Virus record (IMG/VR): IMGVR_UViG_3300022562_001990
Coordinates: 5,440-69,439 of that record
DNA: 64,000 nt
Reading direction: 5' to 3' (one strand)
From: a virus
Translations under genes and position numbers: made by a program
Notes under the pieces: generated by a model
What the model was told of the DNA's origin: nothing
Databases searched by the model: none
What the model saw: only the letters and a program-made list of their open reading frames with translations
Part shown: positions 9,393 through 55,156 of the stretch, one piece after another
Numbering within the stretch: the first letter of the stretch is position 1
Layout of the letters: every line of letters begins with the position of its first letter

Positions 9393-9400
9393 CTTATGCC
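9393..9400 (-). promoter_or_regulatory. GGCATAAG putative phage-specific promoter
   Basis: Exact octamer 22 nt upstream of the first gene of the minus-strand unit; recurs at four other unit heads. Confidence 0.65.
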
Positions 9401-9488
9401 CTGGAGAGCGGCCTGTGATTGACCGAGGAGCTCGCGGCGACCTACACTGTGGTCGGTATTTGTTACCCGGAGAAACTGAAGGAGAACC

Positions 9489-10211
9489 ATGTCAAACGGA
9501 TCAATGCTGCCACCCGACATCAGGGAGCAGATGGACAAGCAGAAGAGTCGTGCCGGAGTTCCGACGTCACCAGGAGGTGTCGGTGGACGAGTGCCCGCAA
9601 ACGCGGCCACCGCTCATCAACGGCAAGTCGCAATGGGCCGAGGCGAAGAAGAGCCAGAGCAGGCGGCTCCACCGAAAGAAGAAGAGAAGGTCGAGGAGGT
9701 TCGCTGCCCAGAGCCGGCATGCGGCATCAAGGCCGAGAACGATTGGATCTTCTGCGCTCGGTGTGGAACCGATCTCATTGCGGGCGGAGCGGCCAAGCGT
9801 CTTGGTGTGACGATCACCGAAGACGATGTGCAGGACTATCTCTTCAAGGGCTATGTTGTTCGCGACATCAAAATCCTTGGGAAGCATGTCGCAACCATGA
9901 GGTCGTCGCAGACCCGCGACCTCAAGGAGATCGACAGCTTCATCATGAACGGCGACTGGTCGAAGGATGAGAAGGGCAACGAGCATCAGGTCTCCGACTT
10001 CTTCCTTCGGCAGATGAATGCGCTGTGCATCACGGCGATGGCCGTTCGAAAGATCGATGGCTCATCGATCGGGGAAAGTCTCGCGGACCGCGTAGCCTGG
10101 ATGGAGGAGCGAGGATCTGCCTTCGTTGACATGCTCGCCACCAAGGTCCAGCTCTTCAACCGAGCGATCACCGAGCATCTAAAGAAAGAAGACGCCCTCC
10201 AGGGGTCCTAA
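9489..10211 (+). CDS. Putative tail assembly chaperone (G-like) with Zn ribbon
   Basis: Lies two ORFs before the tape measure; CPEPAC...CARC; strong AAGGAG. Confidence 0.6.
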   Translation: MSNGSMLPPDIREQMDKQKSRAGVPTSPGGVGGRVPANAATAHQRQVAMGRGEEEPEQAAPPKEEEKVEEVRCPEPACGIKAENDWIFCARCGTDLIAGGAAKRLGVTITEDDVQDYLFKGYVVRDIKILGKHVATMRSSQTRDLKEIDSFIMNGDWSKDEKGNEHQVSDFFLRQMNALCITAMAVRKIDGSSIGESLADRVAWMEERGSAFVDMLATKVQLFNRAITEHLKKEDALQGS

Positions 10212-10291
10212 GCTCTCCGGTCGGATGGGCTAGGGTAAACCTCCACCTGGTCCTTGGTGCCAATGTCGAGTACGGCACACTTCAGGAGAGC

Positions 10292-10588
10292 ATGGCCATC
10301 GAGGCCTGGAGGAAGCAGCAGCGCATCGAGCTCTACAAGACCATCGCTGGCGTCACGGCCTCGGTGAATCCAGAGAGCGCTCAGAAGGCGTTGCGGCAAC
10401 TCATCGAAGAGATGTTCCCGGAGGTTGCGACCGAGCGGGAGCGAGCAGTCGACAAGGCCCTGGAAATCATGGAGAAGGAGAAAGACAAGTCCTACAAAGT
10501 CGCTGCCGTTGGTAGTTCACTTGGGAAGGGATCTTGGGGCCGGATGCAGAATATACTGAAGCAGAAGAAGAGGCCGAGGAGACCGTAG
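10292..10588 (+). CDS. Putative tail chaperone second part (T-like), probably reached by -1 frameshift
   Basis: Its frame is open from 10130 and is -1 relative to the upstream ORF. It abuts the tape measure start. Confidence 0.55.
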   Translation: MAIEAWRKQQRIELYKTIAGVTASVNPESAQKALRQLIEEMFPEVATERERAVDKALEIMEKEKDKSYKVAAVGSSLGKGSWGRMQNILKQKKRPRRP

Positions 10589-13500
10589 GTGGCAACTGAA
10601 TTCAATTACGTCGTCAACGTAGACACGACCCGTGTCATGGGTGCGATGTCGGAGGTTCGTTCCCAGATGGGAATGGCTCTCGGCGGCGTACCTTCTCAGT
10701 TTGCCCCGACGGGTCCCATGGCCCAGATGATGGCTGGCCTCGAGAGCAGGGCGGGCTCCATCCTCGGACGGACACACACCGATCCGGGGATGGCCTACAA
10801 CCCGCACTACGGCCAGGTCCATGCAACGACGACAGCAGAGCAGGAAGCCGCGGTCGCCCGTCACGGCCTGGCGGCAGCTGAGGCCATGCGGCCTCCGGGA
10901 GTATCTGCCTACGAGTACGCGGCAGGCGTTCACGAGAACGCAATCGAGCGCCAGCAGCAAGCCAGGAACGCGGCGCGCAATGCCGCTCAATCCACCTTCC
11001 TCAGTGGCGCTGGTGGCCTTGCTGCGGGCGAGGCAGCCTTTGCCGGGGCAAGCCTCGTCGGCGGTGCGCTTGGAGCCCGAGTAGGAGCGCGCCTCTTTGG
11101 CGGCGGCTTGGGCGGTGCGGCGGCCGGGGCAGGCCGATTCCTTGGCGGCATGGGTCTCGGAATCATGGCCTTCGGCATGGCTGAGGAGTATGTCGGCGGA
11201 AAGATTCGAGATCACTACGCGGAGATCGAGCGGGTCAGCGGCGTTACCAACGAGCTCGCCGATATCGTAGGTGGCGGCCGCAACCTGACTAGAACCCAGA
11301 GGTACGAGACAGGTATCGCGGCGCGCGAGGCAGCCAGGGACATCAACATGGATGTCCAGCAGATGGGAACGATCGCCTCGCTGGCACGGCACACCGGGCT
11401 GCTTCCGAGCACCACTGATCCGACCAAGCTACGTGAGCAGCTCGGCAACCTAGCCAAGGCCGTCGATGAGGGAGCCTCAGCCCTTCACACGTCGCTTGGC
11501 AATGCGGCAATGGTGATCCGCTCGGCGGCGAAGCAGGGGCTCTCGGCCGAGGAGGGGATCCTTCGGGCAGGGGCCGCTGGCGGCGCAGAGCAGTACCTGG
11601 CGGCCCAGTCGCGCTATGAAGCCTTCGGGCGCCAGGGTGCTCAGTTTGCGCTGTCCCAGCGCCTCACAGAGCAGCAAGGCTTCGCGATGTTCACCGGGGC
11701 TCTCGGCCAGGCTGCCGGGGCCGGAATCTCTCCGGAGCAGATGAAGGTCCTCGGCGGCCGTTACGGCGCCGCTCAGCTCATTGGAGGCGCCCAGATCGCC
11801 TCTGCCATGAGTCCGCTCGGCGAGCTCCAGCTCATGGCGGGCACCGGCGGCGAGGCGCTCGGCGGAATGATGGATATGCCTGGTCAGGCACTGGCAGCGA
11901 TGTCGGGCGGAGAAGGCCTGATGACCAACATGATGCGGTTCCAGGTCTACAAGGACGATCTGCGCCGCGGGATTGGAGCCAAGGGTATCCGCACCATGGC
12001 TCGCCAGCAGATGCAGATGGGCGCCGACATGCTCGAGTCCCTGGGCATGGGCGGTAGCAACAAGGAGAGGATGGCTTTCTGGGCTCAGAGCCAAATGGGG
12101 ATGAACCCAACCCAGGCGCTTGCCTACGCGGGCGCCATGGGAGCAGGAGGCGGTGGAGGTGGGCCCGGCGGTGGTGGAGCTGGCGGCGAAGCCTATGCTC
12201 GACGGCTCGATACGTTCCAGAACATGCAAATGCACAGGGCAGGCCTTGCAGCTCTTGGAGCATTCGACCCCAAGAGCGCAGCGGACTATACGGAAGGATA
12301 CGGATTCGGATCTGGATATGCCCTGGAAGGCGGCATGACAGGATTCATGGTCGGAGGTCCGAAGGGTGCCGTCATTGGCGCTGCCGCAGGACTTGTTGCC
12401 GGAAACGCAAAGGCGGCGTGGAACTTCGGCAAGGACCTGTTTGACACGGGGCCCGGACTCTTCGCCAGCGCCCAGGAGAAGGCTGACTACTACAACCGCC
12501 GCGACGCGGCCGAGTACGATGCGAAGGTTTCCGCGTTCAAGGAAAGATACGGCAGCATTGACATCAACATGGATGTAGCTGCACGAGTACGCTCGGCACC
12601 GCTCCGGCGAGTTCAGCTAGACGCCTCCACTTCGATGTCCTCCGCAGCACTTAGTCGGTACACCGGTGTGATGAGCGTACTAAACCTGTCTCCAGTGGAG
12701 GCGGGTCCCGGAACCCTGGGCATCGGAGACAGAAGCCTGAACATAAGAGATCTCCGCGAGCGCGCGAAGATGGCGGATGCGCCGGCGATAGTTACCGACA
12801 AGGTGAAGGATATTGCCTACAAACTTGTAGTTGAAAATCCGAACAAGGAACTGAACGAGGCAAGGAAGGAATACAAGCGAGCATTCACTCAGCTTGCCGA
12901 AGACGACTTTCATGCACCAGATCGCATCCCCGAAGGAGAGAAGGCGGAGTACATCGCTGAGAAGCGTCGCGATGCAATCAAGAGGCTTAACCAGTCTGCT
13001 GGCGTAATGGTAAAGGCCGCCGGCGATGCGGGCATCAACGCTGACTATAGGATTGCCGGGGCTGTTGGGCCGAAGGTTCGTGGCCTAGCAGGCGAGTTGC
13101 TCGGGGGCTGGGAAGCACCAAAGCTTCATGCCCAGATGAGGACCGATATCACATTGGCGGCAAGTCTCGCGGAGGAGGAGGGCGCAGCCCAGCAGCGCAT
13201 GGTCAACTACATCCTAAGAGCTTCCGGCGAGCGTGGGATGGCGGCTGGCGGTTCCCCGGCTGGACGCATGACCGACGAAGAGCTGAGAAGTGAATACGAT
13301 CTTCTCACACAAGGAGAACAGTACAGAGGGACGCGCGTTCTTGGAAAGTACCCTGGAGATACGTTCGAAGAGTTTAAGAAGAGATTCCCTCGAGGAGTTC
13401 AAGGTGAACTAACGGAGAGAATCAGCAAGGGGGGCATGAAGGCCGTCAAGGACGTCGATCAGATGTTGCTTGGGGATTTTGTCCCAGGGATCGCTGAGGA

Positions 13501-16277: not shown

Positions 16278-16280
16278 TCG

Positions 16281-19200: not shown

Positions 19201-19298
19201 CACAGCCACTATCGGAGAAGCAGGTCATTGATCTGCGGCGGGCAGTCATCGATGCTTACAGAGATGAGCTTGAGAGGAACCGTGGATTCACTGGATAA
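16281..19298 (+). CDS. Putative baseplate hub protein (gp27/gpD-like) with long C-terminal extension
   Basis: LRLYMEG...LLFEGIV start and GPFNMRPIPGFP...AYLDAIVHDI hub-like barrel; operon position. Confidence 0.6.
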   Translation: MPGHGKGAEVKLRLYMEGRLVENALNHVQVSGHTGSPATAQLSLVPTNTIKHILPGTWVHVFATDPWDQNPRGDVGDYKLLFEGIVVSRGFTRADDGRALSVQCADPSIYWVEARQFWLSITSANGGIVDQLAIQTSGGYGRFGSVTAEGVYGYMIPKIALTKDQGEERFMDTMISVIDDIGNVNPFYTNARNRFRITDRIIRGNAGNTEKLFQLALLSDFLDGLGGGQSGQSNLAQLVNQLLGSIMHEWVSVPAPPYVSTRIFSRDVFGNIKRKKTTVNRTDSRGRRKVDLFEYETAIDSVVASYIFKPHVYTLSPPTCNVLFPNMYDQMSYQENFMQETTRLQMMPQLPMKNQRQLMGLYMLRPAEIELFTAQIRDENSKSPGKRTPDGKYADGAGQAPRFNDYDWTTNEERIRGIVYNFINLAPAPSTLTLQGQGKKEPDGNRKGGIPDYLQNVASYEYFKAKFAARQSSLSGPFNMRPIPGFPILALDDSDADMNIVAYLDAIVHDISANGSATTQYAIQYPRFVDEVDFNRPRFKAAGTKYEGQLDFDLYRDERGNYDFGTIYDGENAPPIPEWFDEKLRSLTGLNDTYAEWFGSNVGVVQSFLFEDADDNEVALIAQQEAERTQEYEELGIDASKGVNLKVTTPSQVPGVTGETITASDALSDKNKDDIQRANDKITLQDATDELNDAYRRSRGDNREFELASTVTDRSFTRIDEAFRFVGASSVEYADRTKKPSQSARVTFDKNPAATRRVDYRTAKFRTFVGDTSTGSGYYGVKEGEAKPNPTTTSTTVSDATAGQVEVDAVSGADAAAPEDRMSGAFPVFDTTVHTGDEALDQKTRDSLLTSNSERAPSDRARYDGRPVMFDFEFRIWQDSLRIAGFSPTGERIADAAELATNYVTERGQTRPATAQELAQAREARAAAIAARKEEEEARASKGRGNPSKDPNMAPSQQAPTGDGLYQKEKPALPQPLSEKQVIDLRRAVIDAYRDELERNRGFTG

Positions 19299-20142
19299 AA
19301 ATGAAGACCTCGAGCTCGACGTAGAGGCTGAGCTTGAAGAGTGGCTAGAGAAGCAGGCTGCAGAGATGGGAATCTCGCAGGATGACCTGCGCCAGCAGGA
19401 GCTCGATGCGTGGGAGCGCTGGCGTTCGAACCCCAACCCAGAGGATTTTAGCTGGCTCTACAACAGCCACCAGCCACTCATCAACAGCGCAGGAGGCAGG
19501 TATCTCCGTACCGTGCAGCTTCCTAAGGCCGCAATCAAGAGCAGGCTTCTTCGGAACTACGTCAAGGCTCTCGAGACCTACGACCCGACCCGCGGAACCC
19601 AGCTGAGCAGCCATGTCTACAGTGGACTTGGGTACCGGATGCAGAGGTATATCCAGAAGTACACGAATGTCGGTCGAATCCCCGATGACCGAGCGTGGAT
19701 GATCCCCATGATCCAACAAAGGGAAGCCGCCTTGAATGATCTCCTGGGAAGGAAGCCGTCCGACGCCGAGCTAGCAGATGACATCCTCGTCTCGCAGCAG
19801 GGCCTATCCGACCTTCGGCGGGGACAGGTGACGCCCAAGAACGTGGCCACTACACGCAGGGAGCTGCGCAACGACCTCATTGCCGAGGAGGCCGGCGGAG
19901 AGGCTCAGCTTGGCGGCCGGTCTTATGTTGAGCAGCAGGCAGTGTTCCTCCATGGCTCGTTGAACCCGGAGCAGCAGCTCGTGCTCGAGCATACCTTCGA
20001 GGGATTCGGCAAGCCCATCATCACCGACGTGGACCAGCTTTCGAAGGAGCTGGACATGTCGCCGCAAAAGGTTCGCGCAATCAAGAAGCAGCTCGAAAGG
20101 AAGCTGGAGCGCTACTACCGCTCGACGAATGTGAGTGACTGA
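19282..20142 (+). CDS. Sigma70-family RNA polymerase sigma factor (FliA/SigF-like architecture)
   Basis: Region 2 KALETYDPTRGTQLSSHV, region 3 LGRKPSDAELAD, region 4 LNPEQQLVL...LSKELDMSPQKVRAIK. GTG 19282 follows GAGAGGA. Confidence 0.85.
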   Translation: MDSLDKNEDLELDVEAELEEWLEKQAAEMGISQDDLRQQELDAWERWRSNPNPEDFSWLYNSHQPLINSAGGRYLRTVQLPKAAIKSRLLRNYVKALETYDPTRGTQLSSHVYSGLGYRMQRYIQKYTNVGRIPDDRAWMIPMIQQREAALNDLLGRKPSDAELADDILVSQQGLSDLRRGQVTPKNVATTRRELRNDLIAEEAGGEAQLGGRSYVEQQAVFLHGSLNPEQQLVLEHTFEGFGKPIITDVDQLSKELDMSPQKVRAIKKQLERKLERYYRSTNVSD

Positions 20143-22139: not shown

Positions 22140-22157
22140 TAAGGTTTTTCGTAAGTT

Positions 22158-22583
22158 ATGCCTGACCTGAAAGTACTCATAACCGACCCGAACACGGGAA
22201 GGCTTCGGGTTGGCATCCCTCGTCCGCCCCAACAGGTGGAGGGGATCGACCTGCTCGTCCAGATCGTCGTCCTGCTCTACCTCAACAACGGCGGCCGGTC
22301 GATTTTCGCCCCCGGTCGAGCTGGCGGCCTGCGGGATTACATCGGCCTAAACCACGACCCCGACGATCCATCAGAGCTCTTTGCTGACCTTCGACTCATG
22401 ACGAGCCGCATCGAGCAGATCATCAAGGAGGAGCAGGCGAGGACTACACGGCCGCCGTCCGAAAGGCTTCAATCTCTCTTCGTCTTGGATATCATCCCCG
22501 ACGATACTCAGCCGGAGATCGAAATCCAGGTCCAGGTCGTCAATGAGGAGCAAACAACAGCGCAGGCAGTGGTGACAATCTAA
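22158..22583 (+). CDS. Baseplate wedge gp25/gpW-like protein
   Basis: VEGIDLLVQIV...GRSIFAPGRAGGL; immediately before the J-like gene. Confidence 0.7.
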   Translation: MPDLKVLITDPNTGRLRVGIPRPPQQVEGIDLLVQIVVLLYLNNGGRSIFAPGRAGGLRDYIGLNHDPDDPSELFADLRLMTSRIEQIIKEEQARTTRPPSERLQSLFVLDIIPDDTQPEIEIQVQVVNEEQTTAQAVVTI

Positions 22584-24643
22584 TGGCTCTTCCAATCAAA
22601 GACTTCATCATCCAGCAGCTCCTTGAGTACGACTCGAGCTTCGACGTTGGCGCAGGTGTGCCTACGACCGGGCTTTTGGTTGAGCCTCTCTCTGTCATCC
22701 TTCAGCCAATCATCGACGAGCTCACGGTTGTTCAGGCCAGCCAGTCGATCCTCACAATCCTGGAGTCATCCGATCCAGACGCGTTCCCGGAGGACATTGT
22801 CGACGGTCTCGCGTCGAATGCCTTTGTCGAGAGGAACCCAGGCTCCATTGGCTCGGACGTCCAGAGGATTCGCTTCTTCGAACCGACCAGCTTCAGCGCA
22901 CAGCAAGGTGTCCTCATTTTCCGTGGGCCAGCCGGACAGCGGTACTCCAACTCGGAGGCAATCTCGGTCACCGAGGCAGAGATGAGCCTCAACCAAGAGG
23001 GGACACTCTACTTCATCGACCTTCCGATCGTGGCCCTCGAGGAGGGATCCGATTTCAACGTGTCAGCCGGTGGCATCACGACGATGGAGTCGGAGCCGGC
23101 CGGGGTAGCGAACACGACCAACCTCTTCGGAGTGACCGAGGGCCGGGACAGGGAGACCAACACCGAGCTCATTGACCGCATCAAGGTTGCCGTCACCGTT
23201 CGTGCCCTGGTGACTGGCCGCGGCATCATCGTCACCCTCACGGAGAACTTCACCTCCATCGAGGAGATCGAGCCCATCGGCTTCGGCGACGATGAGATGA
23301 TGCGAGACATCGTCTACAACGTGCACATCGGTGGCAACGTAGACGTCTACATCAAGGGCCCTGCGTTCACTTCTGGCTTTCAGGACTTCTTCGGCCTCGA
23401 GGTTGACACGACGAGGATTGCAGAAAGCAATGCCACGGTTGTCGCGCTCGACGACTCGGTAGGCTACCCGCTTGGCAAATACCCACTGGACCGCACGAAC
23501 AGCGCGCCCTCCGTCAAGTCCATCGACAGCATCTTCGTCTACGTCGATGGAGTCGACTACACGATCGACGACTCGGTAGGCCTTTTCTATCGACTCGGTG
23601 GAGGTGGAATCTTCCACATCACCGGAACGACGGGGACCGTGACGACCAGCAAAATCTTGAACGACGTGGGTGCATTCGCCGATGTCCGCACAGGAATGAT
23701 CCTGACCATCAACACGCCTGGCTCGGTGGCCGGCACCTACACGATCAAGTCCAAGATCGATGCCGACAACATCGAGATCTACGGAGACTTTCCGGCTCTG
23801 GTCGGCAGCGTTGGCTATCAGATCGACGACAACCTCGTCGTCGAGTTTGGCTACAACCCGATCGCCATCGACATCATCGCAGAGGCAAGGAACACGCAGC
23901 GTGAGGAGTTCACGATCACCGATGTTCCACTCATGTATATCGAGTCCATTGAGATTCTCGATCCGCTCTCCGGGGAGCCTACGGGAGAGACGCTGTCTGC
24001 GAATGGAGGATTTGGAGCAGGCGGGTATGGCGCAGGACCCTATGGCATTGGAAACGGCGCCGAGTACAAGTTCGTCGTCACAGAACCAACGCTGAGGCAC
24101 TCGGCTCAGGAAGACAACTACATCGAGATCAGCAGCCTCTTCCTCACGACGGCTATCCGCGTCAACTATCTCTATGCCTCTGCGATTCCCCCGATCCAGG
24201 CATTCATGGATGACCGGAACAACCAGAGCGAGACCGCCTCTCTGCTGGCACGGCACTTCATTCCGGCCTTCGTGGACAACCCGAACCCAGTCATCTACGA
24301 CATCCCGACGGCGACATCGACGACGGCGATCTCTGTTTCCGACATGACAGATCTCGTGAAGACGTTCATCGACGACATCAACGAAGGGCAGGCCTTCGAG
24401 TTGTCGGACATCGTTGACCTTCTCTACGACAACGGAGCATCCAGGGTTGATCTTGGTTCTCTCGACACATTCAAGGCAGAGATTCACAACCACGACGGGA
24501 CCGTCCAGTTCGAGCTTCCAACCGACGATGGAAGCATCACCGTTCCAGACGATGAGATCCCAGACCCGACTGACCGACCGCTCTCTCCACGGATCGCAAG
24601 GTTCAGAGCTAGAGACATCTCGCTACAAAGGAATGTCGTATGA
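22583..24643 (+). CDS. Baseplate J-like wedge protein
   Basis: ALEEGSDFNVSAG...GRDRETNTELIDRI...GGNVDVYI. Confidence 0.85.
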   Translation: MALPIKDFIIQQLLEYDSSFDVGAGVPTTGLLVEPLSVILQPIIDELTVVQASQSILTILESSDPDAFPEDIVDGLASNAFVERNPGSIGSDVQRIRFFEPTSFSAQQGVLIFRGPAGQRYSNSEAISVTEAEMSLNQEGTLYFIDLPIVALEEGSDFNVSAGGITTMESEPAGVANTTNLFGVTEGRDRETNTELIDRIKVAVTVRALVTGRGIIVTLTENFTSIEEIEPIGFGDDEMMRDIVYNVHIGGNVDVYIKGPAFTSGFQDFFGLEVDTTRIAESNATVVALDDSVGYPLGKYPLDRTNSAPSVKSIDSIFVYVDGVDYTIDDSVGLFYRLGGGGIFHITGTTGTVTTSKILNDVGAFADVRTGMILTINTPGSVAGTYTIKSKIDADNIEIYGDFPALVGSVGYQIDDNLVVEFGYNPIAIDIIAEARNTQREEFTITDVPLMYIESIEILDPLSGEPTGETLSANGGFGAGGYGAGPYGIGNGAEYKFVVTEPTLRHSAQEDNYIEISSLFLTTAIRVNYLYASAIPPIQAFMDDRNNQSETASLLARHFIPAFVDNPNPVIYDIPTATSTTAISVSDMTDLVKTFIDDINEGQAFELSDIVDLLYDNGASRVDLGSLDTFKAEIHNHDGTVQFELPTDDGSITVPDDEIPDPTDRPLSPRIARFRARDISLQRNVV

Positions 24644-27380: not shown

Positions 27381-27388
27381 GACCTTGA

Positions 27389-37270: not shown

Positions 37271-37352
37271 TAGCTAAGAAATAGACGCAGGCTCCATCCC
37301 ACCCCCCCGTCGCCGGGGGGACGAGAGGAGCCTGAGCGCTCGTCTTATTTCT
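37271..37352. terminator. Long nested hairpin between convergent genes
   Basis: AGAAATAGACG/CGTCTTATTTCT, CAGGCTCC/GGAGCCTG and CCCCCCG-TCGC-CGGGGGG stems. Confidence 0.6.
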
Positions 37353-37903: not shown

Positions 37904-37911
37904 CTTATGCC
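37904..37911 (-). promoter_or_regulatory. GGCATAAG putative phage-specific promoter
   Basis: Exact octamer in a divergent intergenic region. Confidence 0.6.
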
Positions 37912-37946
37912 TGGAAAGGGGGTGTGTTCCGGGGTCGTTGACCGTG

Positions 37947-37952
37947 TAGAAT
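37947..37952 (+). promoter_or_regulatory. -10 box TAGAAT for the head-protein operon
   Basis: TAGAATCCA, identical to the 9-mer at 27413. Confidence 0.45.
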
Positions 37953-37996
37953 CCAACTGATACCGTCACTCACTGCTCCCAGGGGAAGGTCCACAT

Positions 37997-39142: not shown

Positions 39143-39145
39143 GCC

Positions 39146-40192: not shown

Positions 40193-40380
40193 TGGATGCG
40201 AAGAAAACAGACGACTTTGAGGCTGCTCAGGAGATCGGGCGTATGATCTCCGAGTTCCGGCTAGAGTTCATGGATCGCATCAGAGAATCAATCGAGGAAG
40301 AAGCAGACCGGGTTGTCGAGGAGGGTTTTGACCCAGCTCGCGGCCGGGGCAGAGGCCCGCTGTGGGCGCAAGGGGGCTAA
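40189..40380 (+). CDS. Small hypothetical protein
   Basis: Coupled 63-aa ORF. Confidence 0.5.
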   Translation: MMDAKKTDDFEAAQEIGRMISEFRLEFMDRIRESIEEEADRVVEEGFDPARGRGRGPLWAQGG

Positions 40381-40382
40381 CT

Positions 40383-41639: not shown

Positions 41640-41659
41640 AAAGAGGCTAGGCATCTCGC

Positions 41660-43708
41660 ATGGCAGGCGAAGAACTCAGCGGCCTGGGAGGTCGAGACAG
41701 ACGAAGGGGAACGGTCTATCCGTCGCCCTTCTTCGACATTGCTCAGACCTACATGCCGCCCACCGTGAAGGAGCTCTTCCGGTGGTGCCAGTACTTCTTC
41801 TACAAGGACCCGATGATCGGCTCCGTTGTGACGAAGATTGCCGAGTATCCGGTCACGAACTTCGTCTACAACGCCGACCAAAAGCATGTCCGCGATGGGT
41901 GGCAGGAGATCCTCGAGGACACGCTCAACATGAAGCCGTTCCTCATCGAGATCGGCCTAGACTACTTTTGCTACGGCAACGCATTCATCTCCATCAATCT
42001 TCCGTTCATTCGCTGGATTCAGTGCCCTCACAAAGGGTGCAACCAGATGCACAAGCTGTCGGACCCGGAGTTCGAATACCAGTTCAAGAACTACGAGTTC
42101 CACATGCGCTGCAAGGGATGTAGCGCCCAGACGGTTGGCAAGATTGTCGACAGGCCAGTGCGAGACCGCACAGGCATCAACTTCGTCCGATGGGATCCGA
42201 AGAACATCGACATCCACTACAACCCCATCACGGGCCGGTCGAAGTATCGCTACCGTATTCCGAACAAGATCCAAAAGGCCATCCAGCAGGGAATCCGAGA
42301 AATCCTCGTCGACATCCCGGAGGTCTTTCTCAATGCGATGAAGAAGAGGCGCGATATCGCCCTCTCCGACCAGAACATCTTCCACTTCAAACGCCCAACT
42401 CTTGCAGAGCAGGACATGGGTTGGGGCAAGCCGCTCATCATTCACTCGATGGGGCGCATGTTCTACCTCTACGTTCTTCGTCGCGCTCAGGAGGCAATTG
42501 CCCTGCAGCGCATCATGCCGCTTGAGTTCATCTTCCCGCAGGCGAACGCACAGCAAGACCCCTACCAGCACGTCAATCTCTCGAGCTGGCAGGGGACAGT
42601 GCAGACAGAAATCCGCAAATGGCGCATCGACCCCAACTACATCTCGGTCGTGTCGGTGCCTCTTGGTTTCGAGAGATTGGGGGGCGACGGCCGAGCTCTC
42701 TTGCTAGGACCCGAGATCGAAGTCACGAACAAAGAGATCACGGGTGGCATGGGCGTCCCCATCGAATTCGTTTTCGGCGGCCTGTCGTGGTCAGGCTCGA
42801 GCGTGTCCCTGAGGACTCTTGAGAACCACTTCCTTCTCTACCGAAGGCTCCTGCTCAGGTTCGTCAACTGGGCAAAGAACCGGATCAGGCTCTACCTCTC
42901 GCTTCCAGACGTGGACATCGGCTTCACCGAGTTCAAGATGGCGGACGACATCCAGCGCAAGCAGATCGTCATCCAGCTCAACGCGGCGAACAAGATCTCC
43001 GACCACACCATGCTCACCGAGCTCGGCTTCGACTACGACGACGAGCAGGCCATGATCGAGAAGGAGTCGGAGGCAAGGAACCGGATTCAGGCCATCACAA
43101 TGAAGGCCCAGACGGAGGCCCAGGGCGAGGCTCAGATCATCCAGGCCAAGTACCAGGCCAGGGCCCAGGAGGCCATGAACGAAGCCATGGGGCAGTCCTC
43201 CGGCGGCCAGCCAGGCCAGGAGGAGCAGGCCCAGGGGCAGGCCACTCAGGGCCAGGAGGGACAGGCACCTCCTCAAGAAGGCCAGCCGCCCCAGGAGGGC
43301 CAGGAGCAGCCACAGCAGGCCCAGCAGCCACAGCAGGCGGCCTCATCCAGCGAGCTCGCCCAGGACCAGCAGATGGCCCAGCAGGCAGCTCAGCAGGAAG
43401 CCGGGGCCGTGGAGGGGCAGGCCGCCGGACAGGCCGGTGAGCAGGCCGGGGCCCCCGCGGGAGGCCAGGTCCTCGAGCTCGACGCCTCGAGGGTCGCCAA
43501 GCAGTGGGCCAACCGGATCGCACAGCTCTCGCCCGACCAGCAGGGCCAGGTACTCAACGAGCTACGGCAGAAGATGCCGAACATGGCCCGAATCGTCGAA
43601 CAGCTACTCATGCAGATGGGCCCCGGCGGTACAGCCGGCGAGGCTGCCGAGCGCATGAAGCCACTTCCGCAGGCGGCGCCGCCGCGGCGTGAAGGAGGAG
43701 TCGTCTGA
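41660..43708 (+). CDS. Portal protein with Cys4 insertion and Gln-rich tail
   Basis: FLIEIGLDYFCYGNAFIS, WDPKNI and IFHFK...WGKPLI portal-like motifs. Confidence 0.75.
   Translation: MAGEELSGLGGRDRRRGTVYPSPFFDIAQTYMPPTVKELFRWCQYFFYKDPMIGSVVTKIAEYPVTNFVYNADQKHVRDGWQEILEDTLNMKPFLIEIGLDYFCYGNAFISINLPFIRWIQCPHKGCNQMHKLSDPEFEYQFKNYEFHMRCKGCSAQTVGKIVDRPVRDRTGINFVRWDPKNIDIHYNPITGRSKYRYRIPNKIQKAIQQGIREILVDIPEVFLNAMKKRRDIALSDQNIFHFKRPTLAEQDMGWGKPLIIHSMGRMFYLYVLRRAQEAIALQRIMPLEFIFPQANAQQDPYQHVNLSSWQGTVQTEIRKWRIDPNYISVVSVPLGFERLGGDGRALLLGPEIEVTNKEITGGMGVPIEFVFGGLSWSGSSVSLRTLENHFLLYRRLLLRFVNWAKNRIRLYLSLPDVDIGFTEFKMADDIQRKQIVIQLNAANKISDHTMLTELGFDYDDEQAMIEKESEARNRIQAITMKAQTEAQGEAQIIQAKYQARAQEAMNEAMGQSSGGQPGQEEQAQGQATQGQEGQAPPQEGQPPQEGQEQPQQAQQPQQAASSSELAQDQQMAQQAAQQEAGAVEGQAAGQAGEQAGAPAGGQVLELDASRVAKQWANRIAQLSPDQQGQVLNELRQKMPNMARIVEQLLMQMGPGGTAGEAAERMKPLPQAAPPRREGGVV
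43140..43470 (+). repeat. Low-complexity CAG/GGC-rich coding tract (Q/G/A/P)
   Basis: Encodes GQPGQEEQAQGQATQGQEGQAPPQEGQPPQEGQEQPQQAQQPQQA. Confidence 0.8.
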
Positions 43709-44055
43709 TGGCATCCGCAACTCCGATCAGGGCCTCCTTTGGCAACAGCGACCATGGCGTGTTCCACGCCGAGAAGTTCAGCATGTTCGAGGACGAGGAC
43801 CTTGAGCGCTACGCTGATCTCCGAAACCGGGCCAATGATGCCTCCAACGGCATCAAGATCGAAATGATGCGAGAATACTCGCGGAAGACGACAACCCGGG
43901 AAGGTTCGGGCCAAGACCAGGTCGTGACCACCAGCGAAGAAATCGTACTTGTGGTTCACTACTGGGCTAAGGAACCCCAACGCACCAAAGGAGACAGCGA
44001 TGAAGAACTTCAAGAAGCTAAAAAAGATTGGTCAGGCGAGCGCTCGGCTGGTTAG
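43708..44055 (+). CDS. Hypothetical protein
   Basis: TGATG coupling to the portal gene; GAAGGAGG RBS. Confidence 0.65.
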   Translation: MASATPIRASFGNSDHGVFHAEKFSMFEDEDLERYADLRNRANDASNGIKIEMMREYSRKTTTREGSGQDQVVTTSEEIVLVVHYWAKEPQRTKGDSDEELQEAKKDWSGERSAG

Positions 44056-44674
44056 TGCCCTGGCGCTCGTTTGCGCGCTCGGCATCATCACCACGCCTCA
44101 CCTGGCACTTGCCCAAAGCGATGCTGGGATTGCGGCCCCTGCCGAACCGGCCGCGGATCCCGCTCCTGCGCCAGAGCCAGCCGCCGATCCCGCCCCTGCG
44201 CCAGCGCCGGAAGAACCCAAGGCAGAAGCCCCCGCCGCTGAACCAGCTCCTGCTGCAGGCGGAACAGCGCTCCAGAAGCTCAGTGACGAAGTCATGGCGA
44301 TCTTACTTCCCATCCTTGGGACGCTCGCTACCGGACTCGCCGGACTTTTGCTCGCGTGGCTCCGTAAGAAGTTCAAGATCGACATTGGCGACAAGCAGCT
44401 CGATGCGTGGGCCAAGATCGCAGGCAAGGCGGCTAACCGCGCCGGCGAATGGGCGCGCAACAAGCTGAAGAGTGCCACTGAGGGCAAGGCCATCCCTGGT
44501 CCGGAGATCCTCGAGGTTGGTGTGAACTGGGCAATCGAGGTTGGAAAGGCTGCCGGCCTGCCCGACATCGGACGCGAGAAGCTCGAGGGCCTGATCGAAG
44601 CCCACTTGTTCGAGCGCCGCAAGGACCCCTCGGATCCCCTTCCCATGGACGTGGAAGCTCCCTCCGAGGCCTAA
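44000..44674 (+). CDS. LL-H-type holin-like membrane protein with signal peptide and Pro/Ala linker
   Basis: Signal ending ALA-Q, EPAADPAPAP x2, a TM ILLPILGTL...WLRKK, then AAN...AGE and LEGLIEA. Confidence 0.55.
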   Translation: MKNFKKLKKIGQASARLVSALALVCALGIITTPHLALAQSDAGIAAPAEPAADPAPAPEPAADPAPAPAPEEPKAEAPAAEPAPAAGGTALQKLSDEVMAILLPILGTLATGLAGLLLAWLRKKFKIDIGDKQLDAWAKIAGKAANRAGEWARNKLKSATEGKAIPGPEILEVGVNWAIEVGKAAGLPDIGREKLEGLIEAHLFERRKDPSDPLPMDVEAPSEA

Positions 44675-45117
44675 TGCCCGAAGCAGGAAAAGAGTCGAAG
44701 GAGGCAAAGCAACCCTCCTTCGACCCCCACAAGCTCCTTGACCAGCTCAAGGGCATTGTCACCGAGAACAAGAAAGCGACCGGCGGTGGAAAGTCATGGG
44801 TGGGAACCCTGATCATCATCGCGGTCGTCCTTGCCGGCATTGCCCTCTGGTCATGGATCTCTTGGGGACGCAACAAGGAGCTCGCGAAGCTCCGGCACGA
44901 AAAGAACAAGGCCAAGATCCTGAAAGAGAAAGCCGAAGTCGACGCGAAGGTGGCCGAGGGTCACAAGGTAGTCGAAGAAGCCCAGAAGCGGATCGACAGT
45001 GCCGAGGAGAAGCTGCGTATCATCGACGCAGACATCCGAGCAGAGGAGAAACGCTATGAGGCTGATTTGCGCGCTATTGACTCTATCCGTTCTTGGCGGG
45101 ACGCCGGCATTCGCTAA
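44674..45117 (+). CDS. i-spanin-like protein (TM plus coiled coil)
   Basis: TM WVGTLIIIAVVLAGIALWSWISW followed by a long charged helix. Confidence 0.55.
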   Translation: MPEAGKESKEAKQPSFDPHKLLDQLKGIVTENKKATGGGKSWVGTLIIIAVVLAGIALWSWISWGRNKELAKLRHEKNKAKILKEKAEVDAKVAEGHKVVEEAQKRIDSAEEKLRIIDADIRAEEKRYEADLRAIDSIRSWRDAGIR

Positions 45118-45517
45118 CCCGCCGCCGCCCAGGGCAAAGAACATTCCCGAGTGCAAGCTCGTCACGACCAAGGATGGTCGCGAGCTCTGCGCCTACGAGC
45201 TCGACGAATGGGTCGCAGTACTCAAGGCCGATGCTCTCATCAGTCACCAGTACGTCATTCTCGGGAAGCTCGAGGAGCGGGTGGAGATCCTCGAGGAGCA
45301 GAAGATCGACTTTCAGAAACAGATCGCCGCTCTCACGTCGAACGAAGCCCTTCTCATCGAGAGGAACAACAAGATCACGCAGGATCTCATCGACCTAGAT
45401 AAAAAATATCAGGAAGAGCGAGTGCGGCCCAGGTGGGGATCTCCCCTGGCCTGGACCGCCGCCGCTGTATCAACAGCCGTGCTCGCTGGATTCCTGATCA
45501 GAGACGCGGTCGACTGA
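45056..45517 (+). CDS. Exported coiled-coil protein with C-terminal membrane anchor (spanin-partner-like)
   Basis: Signal MRLICALLTLSVLGGTPAFA, coiled coil, C-terminal hydrophobic helix; overlaps the upstream gene by 62 nt. Confidence 0.55.
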   Translation: MRLICALLTLSVLGGTPAFANPPPPRAKNIPECKLVTTKDGRELCAYELDEWVAVLKADALISHQYVILGKLEERVEILEEQKIDFQKQIAALTSNEALLIERNNKITQDLIDLDKKYQEERVRPRWGSPLAWTAAAVSTAVLAGFLIRDAVD

Positions 45518-45518
45518 C

Positions 45519-46007
45519 CTATCCCTCAAATTCGTCGAGAAAACTCGTCTGCCGAGAGGCGTTGGTTCTGCTCGGCTCTTGTCGTTGGTTTGGGGCCGGT
45601 TGATGAAGAGTGCTCCCCCCGAGCGGAATGGCCCCGCCGATGCTCGGTTGCATACTGGGCTGCAGACCCCCTCCCGCTGCGGTCATTGCTGCGACCGGTA
45701 GGATGGGATAGCCCTTCTGTTGCCATTTCCCCACGAAATGGGAATACACGAGGCTACCAGCGGCGATCATCGCGGCCCAGACACATGCCCCGAAGAATGT
45801 CTTGAGCCACCCCATCGCAGGAGATGCCGCCGCCGCTGTCGCCGGAGCGGATGCTGCGAGGTTCACCTGCGCTTTGTTGAGAACGAACCCGTGTGCAGGG
45901 ATTGTGATCACTGCCGCGGCTGCGCCCTTCAGTACCGTGGTCGTATGGCTGGCATTACCCCCGAATTGAGGCTGCCAGCCACCGTCCTTTTCTCTGTAGA
46001 AATACAT
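45519..46007 (-). CDS. Hypothetical single-TM protein
   Basis: AAGGAGG RBS; TM FFGACVWAAMIAAGSLVY. Confidence 0.7.
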   Translation of the reverse strand: MYFYREKDGGWQPQFGGNASHTTTVLKGAAAAVITIPAHGFVLNKAQVNLAASAPATAAAASPAMGWLKTFFGACVWAAMIAAGSLVYSHFVGKWQQKGYPILPVAAMTAAGGGLQPSMQPSIGGAIPLGGSTLHQPAPNQRQEPSRTNASRQTSFLDEFEG

Positions 46008-46030
46008 CGGACCTCCTTTCTTCTCCGATT

Positions 46031-46038
46031 CTTATGCC
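46031..46038 (-). promoter_or_regulatory. GGCATAAG putative phage-specific promoter
   Basis: Exact octamer 23 nt upstream of ATG 46007. Confidence 0.65.
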
Positions 46039-46292
46039 TGCGCAGGCTCGGTATGCCTGGTTGACCGCGGAGAGAGGAGGAGGATTCCTCGTCGAAGGAG
46101 CTCGAGAGAGAGAGCTGTCGCCGATGCCCAGAAGATCATCCTGCTTCCGAGCGATACCAACGCCCCACCGAGAGCGACAACATTGTTGGCGGTTTGCCCG
46201 AAAGCAGATTGAGCAACGGGGACGGTTCGTGACGGCAAAACCTGCTTGGTTCTTGCCGTCGGTGTAGTTTCGTGCGTTTGATAGATGTACAT
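46032..46292 (-). CDS. Possible small hydrophobic protein
   Basis: 86-aa ORF after an A-rich leader, no clear SD; competing ORFs exist. Confidence 0.35.
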   Translation of the reverse strand: MYIYQTHETTPTARTKQVLPSRTVPVAQSAFGQTANNVVALGGALVSLGSRMIFWASATALSLELLRRGILLLSPRSTRHTEPAQA

Positions 46293-46420
46293 GGATGGTT
46301 AGTTTTCTTGTAGTTGAGGGGTTGAAGAGGTGTTTCCGGTGCAATCGGATTCTTGATAGTATTTTTCGTGCTTTGGCTCCTCTTTGAGGGGATACAGCGG
46401 TAGATTCTTTCCACGATCTT

Positions 46421-46428
46421 CTTATGCC
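46421..46428 (-). promoter_or_regulatory. GGCATAAG putative phage-specific promoter
   Basis: Exact octamer 19 nt from the divergent RNAP start. Confidence 0.6.
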
Positions 46429-46447
46429 GGGACGATGTAGGTGACTG

Positions 46448-52636: not shown

Positions 52637-53640
52637 TGGATGAGATCGAATACCCAGGAATCCCTCCGCGAGAGAAAAGAGAGGAAGACAACTTCCTGCC
52701 TGCCCTCGCCGGGGCAGCGTCGCTGTTCCTCACGCCAAAGATGCTTGAGCCATACGGCAGGATCCCGCTCGAGATGTACGAGAAGTCCACTGCCGACCTG
52801 GCGATCAAGGCTCCCCAGGGAACTCCTCTCGAGCAGATCGCAGAGTTCACGCCGGATGAGGTTCAAAAGATCCGAGGGTTCGCCGACAGGAAGGGCGTCA
52901 CGGCAGCAATCGAGGCCGCCGGGCCTGGAGAAGGAAGCCACTTCGCCCTCCGTGGCATTGGGGATGAGGGCGTTGTCAGGCTGGGCAAGAGCCACGTTCC
53001 GAGTGCCCTTCACGAGATCGGCCACGCCTCTCCCATCCTAGGAAGCCGCGGTCTTCGAGACACCTCTCTCATTGGCCACTCTCTCTCGCGAGGCCGGCCA
53101 GGAAAGCTACTCCGCGCAGCAATCGGCCTGAACCTTCTCCGCGACCAGGAGGACGCTGGTGAGCTCTCCCAGTTCGCCTACGAGAATGCGCCAGCCCTCA
53201 TGGGGGCCACCTATGCCCCGATGCTCCTCGAGGAGGCCCGTGCGAGCGGTCACGCCATCGCAGGAGGTAAAAAATTCGGCCCTGGAGCCATGGAGACTGC
53301 CAAGTCGATGGCGCCGGCCTTCGGGACCTATCTCACGAGAGCGCTTGCCCCCATCATTGCGGCTATCGTCACCAAGAGGGTTGTGGAGAGCGTGCGTGGG
53401 TCCAAGGACGGCCATGAAAAGGAGGCGCTCGAGCAGACGCCACGCATCCTTCGGGCAAGCGCGGCTTCGGCCTGGCGAATGAGGCCGCCGGCGGCCAAGC
53501 CGAAGACCACGAAGCCGACAAGCAGCCTCTCCGCAAACGGCAAGGAGGTCGCGAAGCTTCAGCCTCCAAGCAACAAGGCCTACTACCGGGACCTTCTTGA
53601 GTCTCTGCACAACCCGGCGCGCGGGTTCCGTAGCACCTAG
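52636..53640 (+). CDS. Putative zincin metalloprotease
   Basis: ALHEIGHA (HExxH) with downstream EEARAS third-ligand-like motif; coupled to the RNAP stop (TGATG). Confidence 0.65.
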   Translation: MDEIEYPGIPPREKREEDNFLPALAGAASLFLTPKMLEPYGRIPLEMYEKSTADLAIKAPQGTPLEQIAEFTPDEVQKIRGFADRKGVTAAIEAAGPGEGSHFALRGIGDEGVVRLGKSHVPSALHEIGHASPILGSRGLRDTSLIGHSLSRGRPGKLLRAAIGLNLLRDQEDAGELSQFAYENAPALMGATYAPMLLEEARASGHAIAGGKKFGPGAMETAKSMAPAFGTYLTRALAPIIAAIVTKRVVESVRGSKDGHEKEALEQTPRILRASAASAWRMRPPAAKPKTTKPTSSLSANGKEVAKLQPPSNKAYYRDLLESLHNPARGFRST

Positions 53641-54152
53641 TTTGGCTTCTTGGTGAATCCGTAGCAGGCGAGATCGGCACCCTTCGTCCCGAGCTCGACG
53701 CAAGACTTCTCGCCGTTGTTGTCGCCGTCCATGGGGGCGCTGATGAACCACCTGCAGTCTCTGCAGCGAAGCTGCTTTCCACGGTACCCGGCCTCTCTGT
53801 AGTCCTGCGTCATATTTCTCGAGTCCTCTCGAAGGTGGGCTCTAAGAAAAAGGCGCTCACGCGCTGCAGGCTCAAGGTCCTTCAGATCTACCCGATGAAT
53901 GATCAGGTGATCTCTGAAGGCCTTGAGTTCTGCAGGCGGGATTACAACTTCGTTCTCTTCGAGGAAGGCTTGGAGCTCAACCAGGCTTCCGTCCTCCACG
54001 CTGCGTCTGAGGATTTTGCCGAGGGTTTTGATGTGTTCCGGGGTTTGTAGGTCCAGAATCTTCTTGGCCTCAGCAACGCGCTTTTCAACATCCTCGAGGA
54101 CTCTCAGCTGCGCGGGGGACAGCTTGCTGCGGTCTAGCTCTTTTGCCTCCAT
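53637..54152 (-). CDS. Hypothetical protein with C-terminal Cys cluster
   Basis: CRDC...C...C; shares CTAG stop with the convergent gene. Confidence 0.7.
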   Translation of the reverse strand: MEAKELDRSKLSPAQLRVLEDVEKRVAEAKKILDLQTPEHIKTLGKILRRSVEDGSLVELQAFLEENEVVIPPAELKAFRDHLIIHRVDLKDLEPAARERLFLRAHLREDSRNMTQDYREAGYRGKQLRCRDCRWFISAPMDGDNNGEKSCVELGTKGADLACYGFTKKPN

Positions 54153-54159
54153 AGGACGC

Positions 54160-54648
54160 TCATGCTAGCCCAATATGCGCCCCAACGAAATTCCCCAGGT
54201 CGCACGGAGGCATCGTTCTGATCCGTCCGAGGTCGTGGGCAACTGATGAGATTGGGCAGTGCGTCGCGAGATTCGGTGTCCAAGAGAGTATTTGCCTGAT
54301 ATCTCGGGCAATGTACGCCGAATCATCGATGTCCCCTTCGTCGAATCGATCGACACAGCCAAAGCCATCGGCAAGCTGGTCGGTTTCCTCGACTCGCAGA
54401 TTGAGGTTCTTCATGACAACCCAGAACGAGTCCGTGTCCGGGGCGACAATCAGAAGCCTCAGGGCTGCGATTGGGAACGGAGAGCTGCTCCAGCAATAGT
54501 TGCCAGAGAGCCCTGCCAGTGGTGGACTGAGCTCACAGAGAAGTCCGTTCTCTTTCACGAAGAAAGACCCTGTGGGTAGGACGAGGTCTTCCTTTGTCGG
54601 GCTTGGCTCTTTCACCCGTTTGTTTTCATGGTGGGCATAGAATAGCAA
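54160..54648 (-). CDS. Hypothetical protein (start uncertain)
   Basis: Fills the gap in the minus-strand operon; the antisense frame is also open. Confidence 0.45.
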   Translation of the reverse strand: MLFYAHHENKRVKEPSPTKEDLVLPTGSFFVKENGLLCELSPPLAGLSGNYCWSSSPFPIAALRLLIVAPDTDSFWVVMKNLNLRVEETDQLADGFGCVDRFDEGDIDDSAYIARDIRQILSWTPNLATHCPISSVAHDLGRIRTMPPCDLGNFVGAHIGLA

Positions 54649-54675
54649 GGTGGGATCCTCCTGATACGGGGTTGG

Positions 54676-55095
54676 CTAGAACGGGATGTCGTCGTCGCTG
54701 CTTCCCGGTCCAGGATCCTCGTAGTTCCCGTAGCCATCGTTGCCACCTCCGCTGCCGCCGCCAGACTTCTCCGAAGTCTTCGGGCCAAACTCCCAGTAGG
54801 TGCCCTTGCCCTCGGTAGTCCACCTGTCGTTCCCCTCCTTGTCCTGCCACTTGCGGACTTGGATTTTCGACTTGGTGAAGATCCAATCGCCCTTCTTGAA
54901 GAACTTGGCGATGGTCTCTCCGCTTTTGCCCCAGAAGTTCACGTTCCACCAGGTCGTGCGCTCCTGCTTGTTGCCGTCCTTGTCCTTCCACCTCTCGGTG
55001 TCTGCGATTCGGATGGAGGTTACGGTTGTATCGCCAACCGTCCTGGTCTCTGGATCTGCACCCAGGTAGCCAGTAAAAACTACTTCGTTTGCCAT
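54676..55095 (-). CDS. ssb: Single-stranded DNA-binding protein
   Basis: NEVVFTGYLGADPE OB-fold start, WWNVNFWG, Gly linker and DDDIPF tail. Confidence 0.96.
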   Translation of the reverse strand: MANEVVFTGYLGADPETRTVGDTTVTSIRIADTERWKDKDGNKQERTTWWNVNFWGKSGETIAKFFKKGDWIFTKSKIQVRKWQDKEGNDRWTTEGKGTYWEFGPKTSEKSGGGSGGGNDGYGNYEDPGPGSSDDDIPF

Positions 55096-55112
55096 TTGAT
55101 TTCTTTCTCCTT

Positions 55113-55134
55113 CCTCAGCACCCGCTGAGGTTTT
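55113..55134. terminator. Perfect 7-bp hairpin CCTCAGC-ACCC-GCTGAGG plus TTTT
   Basis: Has terminator form on the + strand and abuts the ssb SD on the - strand. Confidence 0.5.
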
Positions 55135-55148
55135 AGTTGTACAAGTAC

Positions 55149-55156
55149 CTTATGCC
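55149..55156 (-). promoter_or_regulatory. GGCATAAG putative phage-specific promoter (ssb unit)
   Basis: Exact octamer 53 nt upstream of the ssb ATG. Confidence 0.65.

Follow-up and report, generated by a model that had tools for sequence, protein, structure and literature searches.

Which promoters are read by a bacteriophage that encodes both a bacterial-type RNA polymerase (RNAP) and a sigma factor, and at what stage of infection would they be read? The question is raised by a 64,000-nucleotide stretch of viral DNA (hereafter the window), bases 5440–69439 of the single 69,439-bp viral contig IMGVR_UViG_3300022562_001990. On its plus strand the window encodes a single-chain RNAP and a sigma70-family factor; on its minus strand it carries repeated copies of an octamer, GGCATAAG, hereafter called the class I element. 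A preliminary description of this DNA had proposed that the RNAP and a pro-sigma are packaged in the virion to transcribe the octamer-headed genes early, host-type promoters being used late. We present here the evidence that the octamer is a promoter element, then the enzyme that is its probable reader, and finally the case for and against delivery of that enzyme by the virion.

A minus-strand octamer and its counterparts in related phages

Six exact copies of GGCATAAG were found in the window, all on the minus strand, compared with 0.72 expected, and none of 100 shuffled sequences reached six; the whole contig contains seven copies on the minus strand and none on the plus strand. One-mismatch variants were at background level (27 against 28). 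Five of the six window copies precede minus-strand genes (those of the SSB island, of membrane proteins and of the arm that holds an SNF2 helicase, which is headed by gene 8237–9370), and one lies inside the helicase gene (Table 1). The preliminary description had stated that a non-sigma70 octamer is common to the SSB, helicase-arm and membrane-protein islands, and these counts confirm the shared octamer; the G at −7 is described below. The copy inside the helicase gene is a doubtful promoter and is possibly incidental, being part of a coding stretch conserved in a relative. The element at 46421 heads an open reading frame (ORF) of 86 amino acids (aa; 46032–46292, minus strand). A further class I element, at contig positions 1753–1760, lies straight after a terminator-like hairpin.

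The copies beside the RNAP start and before SSB are retained in four of four related loci. In the related records G001 and G002, the octamer is present 10 and 5 times, respectively, on the strand opposite RNAP and is absent from the other strand (reversed-pattern controls, 0). Alignment of 22 different copies from outside coding sequence, orthologues among them, gave the consensus C-n-GGCATAAG-R-n4-Y-R-n-A, in which index 13 is a pyrimidine in 21 of 22 copies and index 14 a purine in all 22. This Y-R step is located 6–7 nucleotides (nt) downstream of the element, the position predicted for the transcription start on the assumption that CATAAG serves as the −10 hexamer. At most sites the octamer is followed by a ribosome site and, 16–57 nt away, by a start codon; several copies come immediately after a hairpin and a T-run. 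A fixed −35 element was not found, as no column of the −35 zone exceeded 0.63 bits in the 22 copies. The class does not match the canonical sigma70 −10 (TAnnnT, T at −7) either: sigma70 requires a T at −7, where class I has an invariant G, and position −12 is a C. A sigma54 reading of the GGCA was rejected by eye, there being no GC ten bases further on, and an apparent upstream GGTCAA box proved to be the reverse complement of the plus-strand TTGACC −35 element. The strand bias, the position and the aligned context of the octamer support the conclusion that it behaves as the promoter element of the minus-strand islands. No class I element is present on the plus strand in this clade, and the RNAP and sigma genes therefore lie outside the presumed class I regulon.

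Counterparts of the octamer were found in two distant relatives with complete genomes, Salmonella phage Arash and Vibrio phage D69, in both cases on the strand opposite RNAP. The Arash element, GGTATAAG, was recognised from the regions upstream of minus-strand genes; it is present 30 times on the minus strand and once on the plus strand (controls, 2 and 3). Among 21 of the 30 minus-strand sites examined, the pyrimidine was found in 20 and the purine in 21 at the same spacing, and start codons are mostly 24–30 nt beyond the element. The D69 element, GTTATAAG, is present 18 times on the minus strand and once on the plus strand (controls, 3 and 2), with a Y-R spacing that appeared identical by eye. 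The three clades vary at positions −14 to −12, which are GGC, GGT or GTT. The co-occurrence of RNAP, sigma and motif that the preliminary description had proposed to look for in related genomes was observed in G002, Arash and D69, where the octamer or a variant of it is on the strand opposite RNAP. The hosts of the three clades differ (Salmonella, Vibrio and a GC-rich host), and the RNAP and this sigma are common to all. It is mainly because RNAP, sigma and element stay together across hosts that we assign class I to the enzyme of the phage and not to a sigma of the host, and we consider it probable that the phage holoenzyme reads these promoters.

The sole plus-strand GGTATAAG of Arash (11588–11595 of its record) falls in the 13 nt that separate gp8 from gp9; the sigma gene gp10 begins about 300 nt further downstream. 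It could be a chance match, the controls having given 2–3, or a self-regulating promoter.

The single-chain RNA polymerase and its sigma factor

The RNAP gene is one intact open frame, in which Pfam places the beta domains first and the beta' domains after. The beta domains include the second barrel (Rpb2_6, 4.8e-51; Rpb2_3, 8.5e-11), and the beta' domains are Rpb1_1, Rpb1_2 (2.3e-26), Rpb1_4 and Rpb1_5. The beta-barrel motif GDKLTNRHGGKGI is found near residues 777–789 and the catalytic loop NADFDGD at residues 1384–1390. The closest solved structures are bacterial beta' subunits (PDB, E 5e-114). A protein search gave 676 matches; the best 120 are all fused and about 2000–3200 aa long, more than 100 fused relatives measuring about 2000–2100 aa, and some metagenomic relatives contain intein domains. 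The lineage has probably been seen earlier in metagenomes (PMC7481178). The RNAP is one chain in the present clade; in Arash and D69 a split at one common point gives two parts, of about 1525 and 606 aa. Inserted genes plus a class I element are present in the gap between the two parts (Arash L006:14824–25992; D69 L018:8884–15935), the inserted genes of Arash amounting to about 4.8 kb.

No alpha subunit (PF01000, PF01193) was found in any of the five records searched (this contig, two related fragments and the complete Arash and D69 genomes), and the controls were detected in 14 of 14 cases. A host alpha may serve the phage RNAP. The preliminary description had spoken of a cell-like holoenzyme, which, with no alpha found in these records, claims too much.

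The sigma protein matched SigA in the PDB (7l7b_F, E 5.1e-8, residues 102–294 on 189–385, regions 2–4) and phrog_351, 'RNA polymerase sigma factor' (6.4e-7). It remained below the curated cut-offs of Pfam (Sigma70_r3, 20.1 bits against 25.3; Sigma70_r2, E 0.047; Sigma70_r4, no match). On the strength of these sequence matches it is a divergent member of the sigma70 family. Many of its 105 homologues begin at a V/MDS position; the N-terminal 50 residues are acidic, and their length varies among homologues. The protein is the orthologue of Arash gp10 (BLASTP 3e-19), the second Arash sigma, gp196, giving only 0.098. When phage records were searched by tblastn, only four matched: Arash, by gp10, and three Vibrio phages, all with the match in a corresponding position. 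The gene has a syntenic place in G002, Arash and D69; it overlaps an upstream 1005-aa gene that is homologous to gp8, the structural cell-wall hydrolase of Arash, abuts its downstream neighbour, and is two genes ahead of the gene for the Baseplate_J protein. Homologues of RNAP and sigma co-occur in 14 pairs matched by longest contigs of equal size, and the sigma family and the fused RNAP occur together in all three clades. A second sigma is present in Arash and D69; no homologue of gp196 was found in this contig.

Docking of the sigma on the RNAP was modelled with sigma residues 40–296 and RNAP residues 800–1440. The complex scored 0.75 in three runs (best control, 0.02). Of 80 solved complexes 58 attained that score, as did 2 of 110 mismatched pairs; the three runs agreed in at least 58% of contacts, and the predicted local distance difference test (pLDDT) of the partners was at least 73. 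The modelled interface joins RNAP residues 1190–1223 to sigma residues 89–104 (QLPKAAIKSRLLRNYV) and, as solved sigma–core complexes exist, indicates likeness to these rather than binding. We take RNAP residues 1190–1223, picked by eye by comparison with the E. coli sequence, to be the clamp helices. In the model, the LPKAA helix of the sigma is its contact with the beta' clamp helices of the RNAP. This helix contains K92-A93-A94, and P91 and A94 are invariant in 40 sequences.

The preliminary description had noted this K-x-A as a motif that the sigma shares with presumptive head proteins, and had taken the protein for a pro-sigma. A protease site at K-x-A was rejected, for the motif belongs to the family's most conserved helix and to the modelled core-binding surface; a K-x-A pro-sigma is untenable because cleavage there would destroy that surface. 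No protease site could be defined in the sigma, nor a removable pro-sequence with a shared cleavage motif.

The plus-strand operons and their candidate promoters

The contig is estimated by CheckV to be 38% complete, and the RNAP and sigma genes of relatives are found on contigs of up to 150–178 kb; for these two reasons it was treated as a fragment of a large genome, and it is probably about 38% of a genome of 150–180 kb. No terminal repeat was found in the 69,439 bp. The longest contigs of many relatives cluster at 62–71 kb, as here, and others reach 150–178 kb; the cluster may reflect genomes that are truly of this size, or assemblies that repeatedly break there. The G+C content of the contig is 57–63%. 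Megablast of 20 kb against 50,697 phage records gave no match, so that no close DNA relative was found. Most virion ORFs received no name from Pfam or PHROG.

The RNAP and sigma genes are both on the plus strand within virion operons (portal–RNAP and tail–sigma–baseplate), as the preliminary description had recognised, and are thus placed in the structural (late) module like virion-packaged phage RNAPs. The order portal, small genes, RNAP is kept in Arash, D69 and the related loci L001–L004, which cover all three clades. The long operon that contains the sigma gene has as its first gene a 240-aa ORF, 9489–10211, with a weak zinc-ribbon match; it is kept full-length in G002 (51% over 241 aa, 1.6e-72). 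The minus-strand ORFs 9567–9986 and 9986–10171 were rejected as shadows of this conserved ORF, and we therefore consider that the operon begins at 9489.

The pattern TTGACN-N16-18-TAnnnT was found four times on the plus strand and never on the minus strand, compared with about 0.68 in simulations, and two of the four matches head long plus-strand operons (class II promoters in Table 1). Both are conserved: G002 retains TTGACC-N17-TACAC at the site orthologous to 9419, and L003 retains TTGACC-N18-(TGA)TACCTT at the site orthologous to 37938. A candidate extended −10-like box precedes the RNAP gene, and relatives have TGGCAGTAT or TGAGTAT, as judged by eye, in the same intergenic region. The corresponding pattern TGNTAGWAT was found twice compared with 0.75 expected, which is not significant, 17 of 100 shuffles reaching two. 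No enrichment was observed for sigma70-type promoters between 36 and 56 kb (2 against 3.5), for TAGAAT (7 against 9.2 expected) or, with a looser sigma70 score, across the contig. The sigma70-like boxes that the preliminary description had attributed to structural genes are thus supported at two conserved operon starts and not by any global enrichment.

Other plus-strand motifs were also considered. TAGAATCCA was not common to the loci compared, and the strand counts of CCTAAAAT in Arash were 3:1 (controls, 3 and 2). CTAAAATA was weakly biased to the plus strand (8:3 in D69, with controls of 1 and 1, and 4:1 in Arash) and sometimes abuts the reverse complement of class I; it recalls the TATAAATA box of T4 late promoters.

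Canonical sigma70 promoters (TTGACA-N17-TAnnnT) were searched for in Arash (loci L006, L007, L019 and L020) with a threshold of at least 10 of 12 matches. Sixteen sites were found on the minus strand and three on the plus strand, compared with 7.9 ± 2.3 in simulations, and ten sites had a perfect TTGACA. The minus-strand sites cluster at 44–66 kb, in a region of tRNA genes and small ORFs, and may constitute a third, host-read promoter class.

Table 1. Promoter elements and genes of the window, in window coordinates
Feature	Position	Strand	Basis or context
Single-chain beta-beta' fusion RNAP, bacterial multisubunit type, 2062 aa	46448..52636	+	Pfam, PDB
Divergent sigma70-family factor, sigma2-sigma3-sigma4	19282..20142; alternative starts 19252, 19264	+	PDB, PHROG
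Class I element GGCATAAG	55149..55156	-	Upstream of SSB island; orthologous copy in L001-L004
Class I element	46421..46428	-	20 nt from RNAP start, pointing away; same place in 4/4 relatives
Class I element	46031..46038	-	23 nt before ATG of 45519-46007 (-), 162-aa protein with hydrophobic segment
Class I element	37904..37911	-	Upstream of 37352-37777 (-), 141 aa; orthologous copy L003 938-945
Class I element	9393..9400	-	22 nt before ATG of 8237-9370 (-), 377 aa; orthologous copy G002 L015:1070
GGCATAAG copy, coding G-G-I-S	6639..6646	-	Inside SNF2 helicase; same coding context in G002 L015:3771
Class II promoter (candidate), TTGACC-N18-TACACT	9419..9448	+	Back to back with element 9393; ahead of 9489-10211
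Class II promoter (candidate), TTGACC-N17-(TGA)TACCGT	37938..37966	+	Ahead of operon 37997-45517, back to back with class I element
Candidate extended -10-like box TGATAGTAT	46354..46362	+	About 90 nt upstream of RNAP gene
Plus-strand operon holding portal	37997-45517	+	Preceded by class II promoter 37938
Portal protein	41660..43708	+	tblastn against Arash gp204, 3e-68
Terminase	59728-61506	+	Pfam GpA_ATPase
Baseplate_J protein	22583-24643	+	Pfam
SNF2 helicase	6233-8233	-	Pfam SNF2-rel_dom, 4.9e-21
SSB island genes	54676-55095, 54160-54648, 53637-54152	-	SSB Pfam E 7.5e-20
HExxH protein, 334 aa	52636..53640	+	Start overlaps RNAP stop codon; HEIGHAxPIxGS in 4/4 clade members

Several neighbouring features were observed. 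Structure matches of the HExxH protein encoded next to the RNAP point weakly to Zn-metallopeptidases (TM 0.45–0.5). A G+C-rich hairpin with T or A runs on either side (37287–37340), located between the end of the long plus-strand operon and that of 37352–37777 on the minus strand, looks from its sequence like a bidirectional terminator. Two adjacent plus-strand genes have a similar C-terminal domain of about 75 aa (about 62040–62266 and 63660–63900, recognised by eye at the DNA level), which may be a common fibre or decoration module. In the part of the minus-strand arm that precedes the window, a 179-aa protein has the thumb and palm domains of DNA polymerase beta (2.2e-17; L017:965–1504, minus strand).

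Possible virion delivery, the proposed programme and its alternatives

Arash is the sole relative for which virion proteomics is available. In its liquid chromatography–mass spectrometry list the RNAP protein gp206 was detected more than any other, with 128 unique peptides and 3516 spectra; gp216 is listed too, as is the sigma gp10 at 100% coverage, whereas gp196, the second sigma, is absent (PMC10585845). For 40 of the 116 Arash proteins, those of about 280 aa or longer, we normalised the number of unique peptides to protein length. The values per 100 aa were 8.4 for gp206, 6.6 for gp216 and 10.3 for gp10, compared with 9.8 for the major capsid protein; the median was 5.0 for the 24 plus-strand proteins and 0.8 for the 16 minus-strand proteins, which are mostly enzymes. 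With the points for and against it taken together, we give delivery of the phage RNAP and sigma in the virion about an even chance.

We propose that the window is a piece of a large Arash-like myovirus with a two-class transcription programme. In this programme a single-chain, alpha-less beta-beta' RNAP and its dedicated sigma, docked on the beta' clamp helices via the LPKAA helix, would read the class I promoters. CATAAG would be a non-canonical −10 whose −12 base is C and whose −7 base is always G; the promoter would consist of C-n-GGCATAAG, five bases and a pyrimidine|purine start, and would head the DNA-metabolism and membrane-protein islands on the minus strand only. Most likely, RNAP and sigma would be made late, from virion operons of the plus strand headed by class II promoters, then packaged and injected, so that class I promoters would fire at the next infection. 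Class II promoters would be read afterwards, either by the RNAP of the host or by that of the phage together with a second sigma. The complete chain, from class I recognition through packaging to injection, is proposed tentatively, and we rate it slightly short of an even chance. As for the idea of the preliminary description that host-type promoters are used late, it is possible, and the second phage sigma present in Arash and D69 could equally read them.

A number of points weigh against this programme. The assignment of sigmas to promoter classes, the start site, the temporal order and packaging in this phage are all deduced from sequence, and no RNA run was found to contain the window. In particular, class I is tentatively attributed to this sigma rather than to the second one on the basis of its non-canonical regions 2.3/2.4 and 4.2, as read from the SigA alignment with E. 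coli residue numbering. A host sigma may read GGCATAAG, and further transcription genes may lie outside the contig. The Arash particles were from one sucrose gradient, and their 116 proteins include ribonucleotide reductase, primase and ligase; the authors themselves allow that RNAP and sigma may be abundant, carried-over contaminants, and raise early transcription as one possibility, with promoters unmentioned (PMC10585845). Given the excess of minus-strand sigma70 promoters in Arash, host RNAP probably takes part early in that phage. Finally, class II promoters resemble those of host sigma70, with one candidate upstream of the RNAP gene; packaging would be dispensable because host RNAP could make the enzyme from them after infection.

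This last point leads to a T7-like cascade without packaging, in which host sigma70 would read the class II promoters and make the phage RNAP and sigma, which would then read class I. It agrees with the two conserved TTGACC-N17/18-TAC..T promoters that head plus-strand operons, with the TG-extended −10-like box upstream of the RNAP gene and with the position of RNAP as first gene of its block; the excess of canonical sigma70 promoters in Arash, which suggests that the family probably uses host RNAP, and the impurity of the Arash virion proteome also favour it. However, the sigma gene is about 10 kb into a 28-kb tail and baseplate operon, an odd place for a pre-replication factor, and virion genes would be expressed ahead of replication genes. 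Moreover, the Arash sigma70-like promoters are on the minus strand, the plus strand having only 3 compared with 7.9 expected, and RNAP and gp10 are sampled in Arash particles as deeply as the capsid protein, unlike replication enzymes. We regard a host-first cascade as less likely than the proposed programme, yet as a serious rival to it.

A rather unlikely proposal is that a widespread family of phages of 150–180 kb has a self-contained sigma cascade that dispenses with host RNAP. The core and sigma, packaged beside the portal, would fire GGYATAAG promoters, a second, more canonical sigma would be made from the early transcripts and would retarget the core late, and late sigma70-like promoters would then re-make RNAP and the virion sigma.

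It is improbable that the phage sigma redirects the host core to GGCATAAG, the phage RNAP working with another specificity factor or with none. There are well-known examples of phage sigmas that retarget the core of the host, 26 kb separate the sigma gene from the RNAP gene, and a second sigma exists in Arash and D69; on the other hand, the sigma family and the fused RNAP occur together on at least 14 contigs and in all three clades, the model that places the sigma on the phage clamp helices is of high confidence, and conservation of the promoter core across phages of Salmonella, Vibrio and a GC-rich host fits a pair of phage core and phage sigma better. Finally, that the octamer is an RNA-level signal of 5' leaders (processing or stability) or the operator of a DNA-binding regulator is very improbable: it does lie within 5' leader distance of start codons, and the transcription starts are predicted only, but it is asymmetric, is similar to a −10 hexamer, has the conserved Y-R step as far away as such a hexamer predicts, and often comes right after a terminator-like hairpin and T-run, where a new transcript must begin, with no −35-less alternative promoter visible upstream at short intergenic sites.

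How does a phage RNAP of this kind, with its sigma, compare with known systems? Phage N4 packages a single-subunit, T7-like RNAP within a giant protein, which uses hairpin promoters and no sigma. In N4 the virion RNAP reads phage early promoters and host RNAP acts late on sigma70-type promoters; the proposed logic is the same, so that the temporal order suggested in the preliminary description has a precedent. N4 differs in its enzyme, which here is a double-psi beta-barrel beta-beta' RNAP with a sigma70-family factor. In SPO1 (gp28, gp33-34) and T4 (gp55), sigma-family factors set temporal promoter classes with a non-host −10 on the host core, whereas here a phage core is encoded alongside. 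To our knowledge, the phage multisubunit RNAPs that have been studied (phiKZ, AR9) work without sigma, and the packaged RNAPs (N4, crAss-like phages) are not bacterial-type holoenzymes.

As described in two reviews, phiKZ and AR9 have beta/beta' relatives and no alpha, one set being packaged for early genes, and short promoters without a −35 (PMC7598289, PMC7824862); for phiKZ-like (group 1) phages, the second of these gives no sigma factor found (PMC7824862). Their RNAPs differ in comprising 4–5 polypeptides, whereas the present one is a single fused chain, far closer to bacterial sequences, with a sigma. The gp66 protein of crAss-like phages is also a very large single chain with both barrels and is reported to be packaged in the virion (bioRxiv 10.1101/2020.03.07.982082). 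It has no recognisable sequence similarity to COG0085/COG0086 (PMC7481178), whereas the RNAP described here strongly matches the Pfam beta and beta' domains. The mReC lineage resembles it in consisting of metagenomic Caudovirales contigs with beta and beta' alignable with cellular forms; the paper, which covers 97 contigs, does not mention sigma or the virion, and mentions fusion only for crAssphage (PMC7481178).

The closest system is Arash (OQ632216; PMC10585845), whose RNAP is a member of this family, with an identity of about 34% in the tblastn comparison, and which has the sigma orthologue gp10 at the same place in the tail operon, the same portal–RNAP order and the same opposite-strand promoter architecture. 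It differs by its RNAP, split into 1525 aa and 606 aa, by an element that is GGTATAAG instead of GGCATAAG, by its second sigma gp196 and by its many canonical sigma70 promoters on the minus strand. Literature searches gave no description of this promoter class or of a sigma-dependent phage-encoded RNAP, the nearest item being the gene annotation and proteome table of Arash (PMC10585845).

What is new here is a fused, alpha-less, presumably sigma-dependent phage RNAP system with a computationally defined promoter class, and the conservation across hosts of an element with a Y-R start point opposite the RNAP strand. It offers a testable minimal holoenzyme of two polypeptides, and, as a natural experiment, a set of −10 elements in which −7 is G and −14 to −12 vary by clade. 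Arash provides a cultured entry point, in which 30 predicted promoters and packaging are testable. If the cascade of these phages were self-contained, theirs would be the first sigma-dependent virion RNAP, a minimal bacterial-type holoenzyme made of two polypeptides; and if packaging is true, a large fused multisubunit polymerase must traverse the tail and refold.

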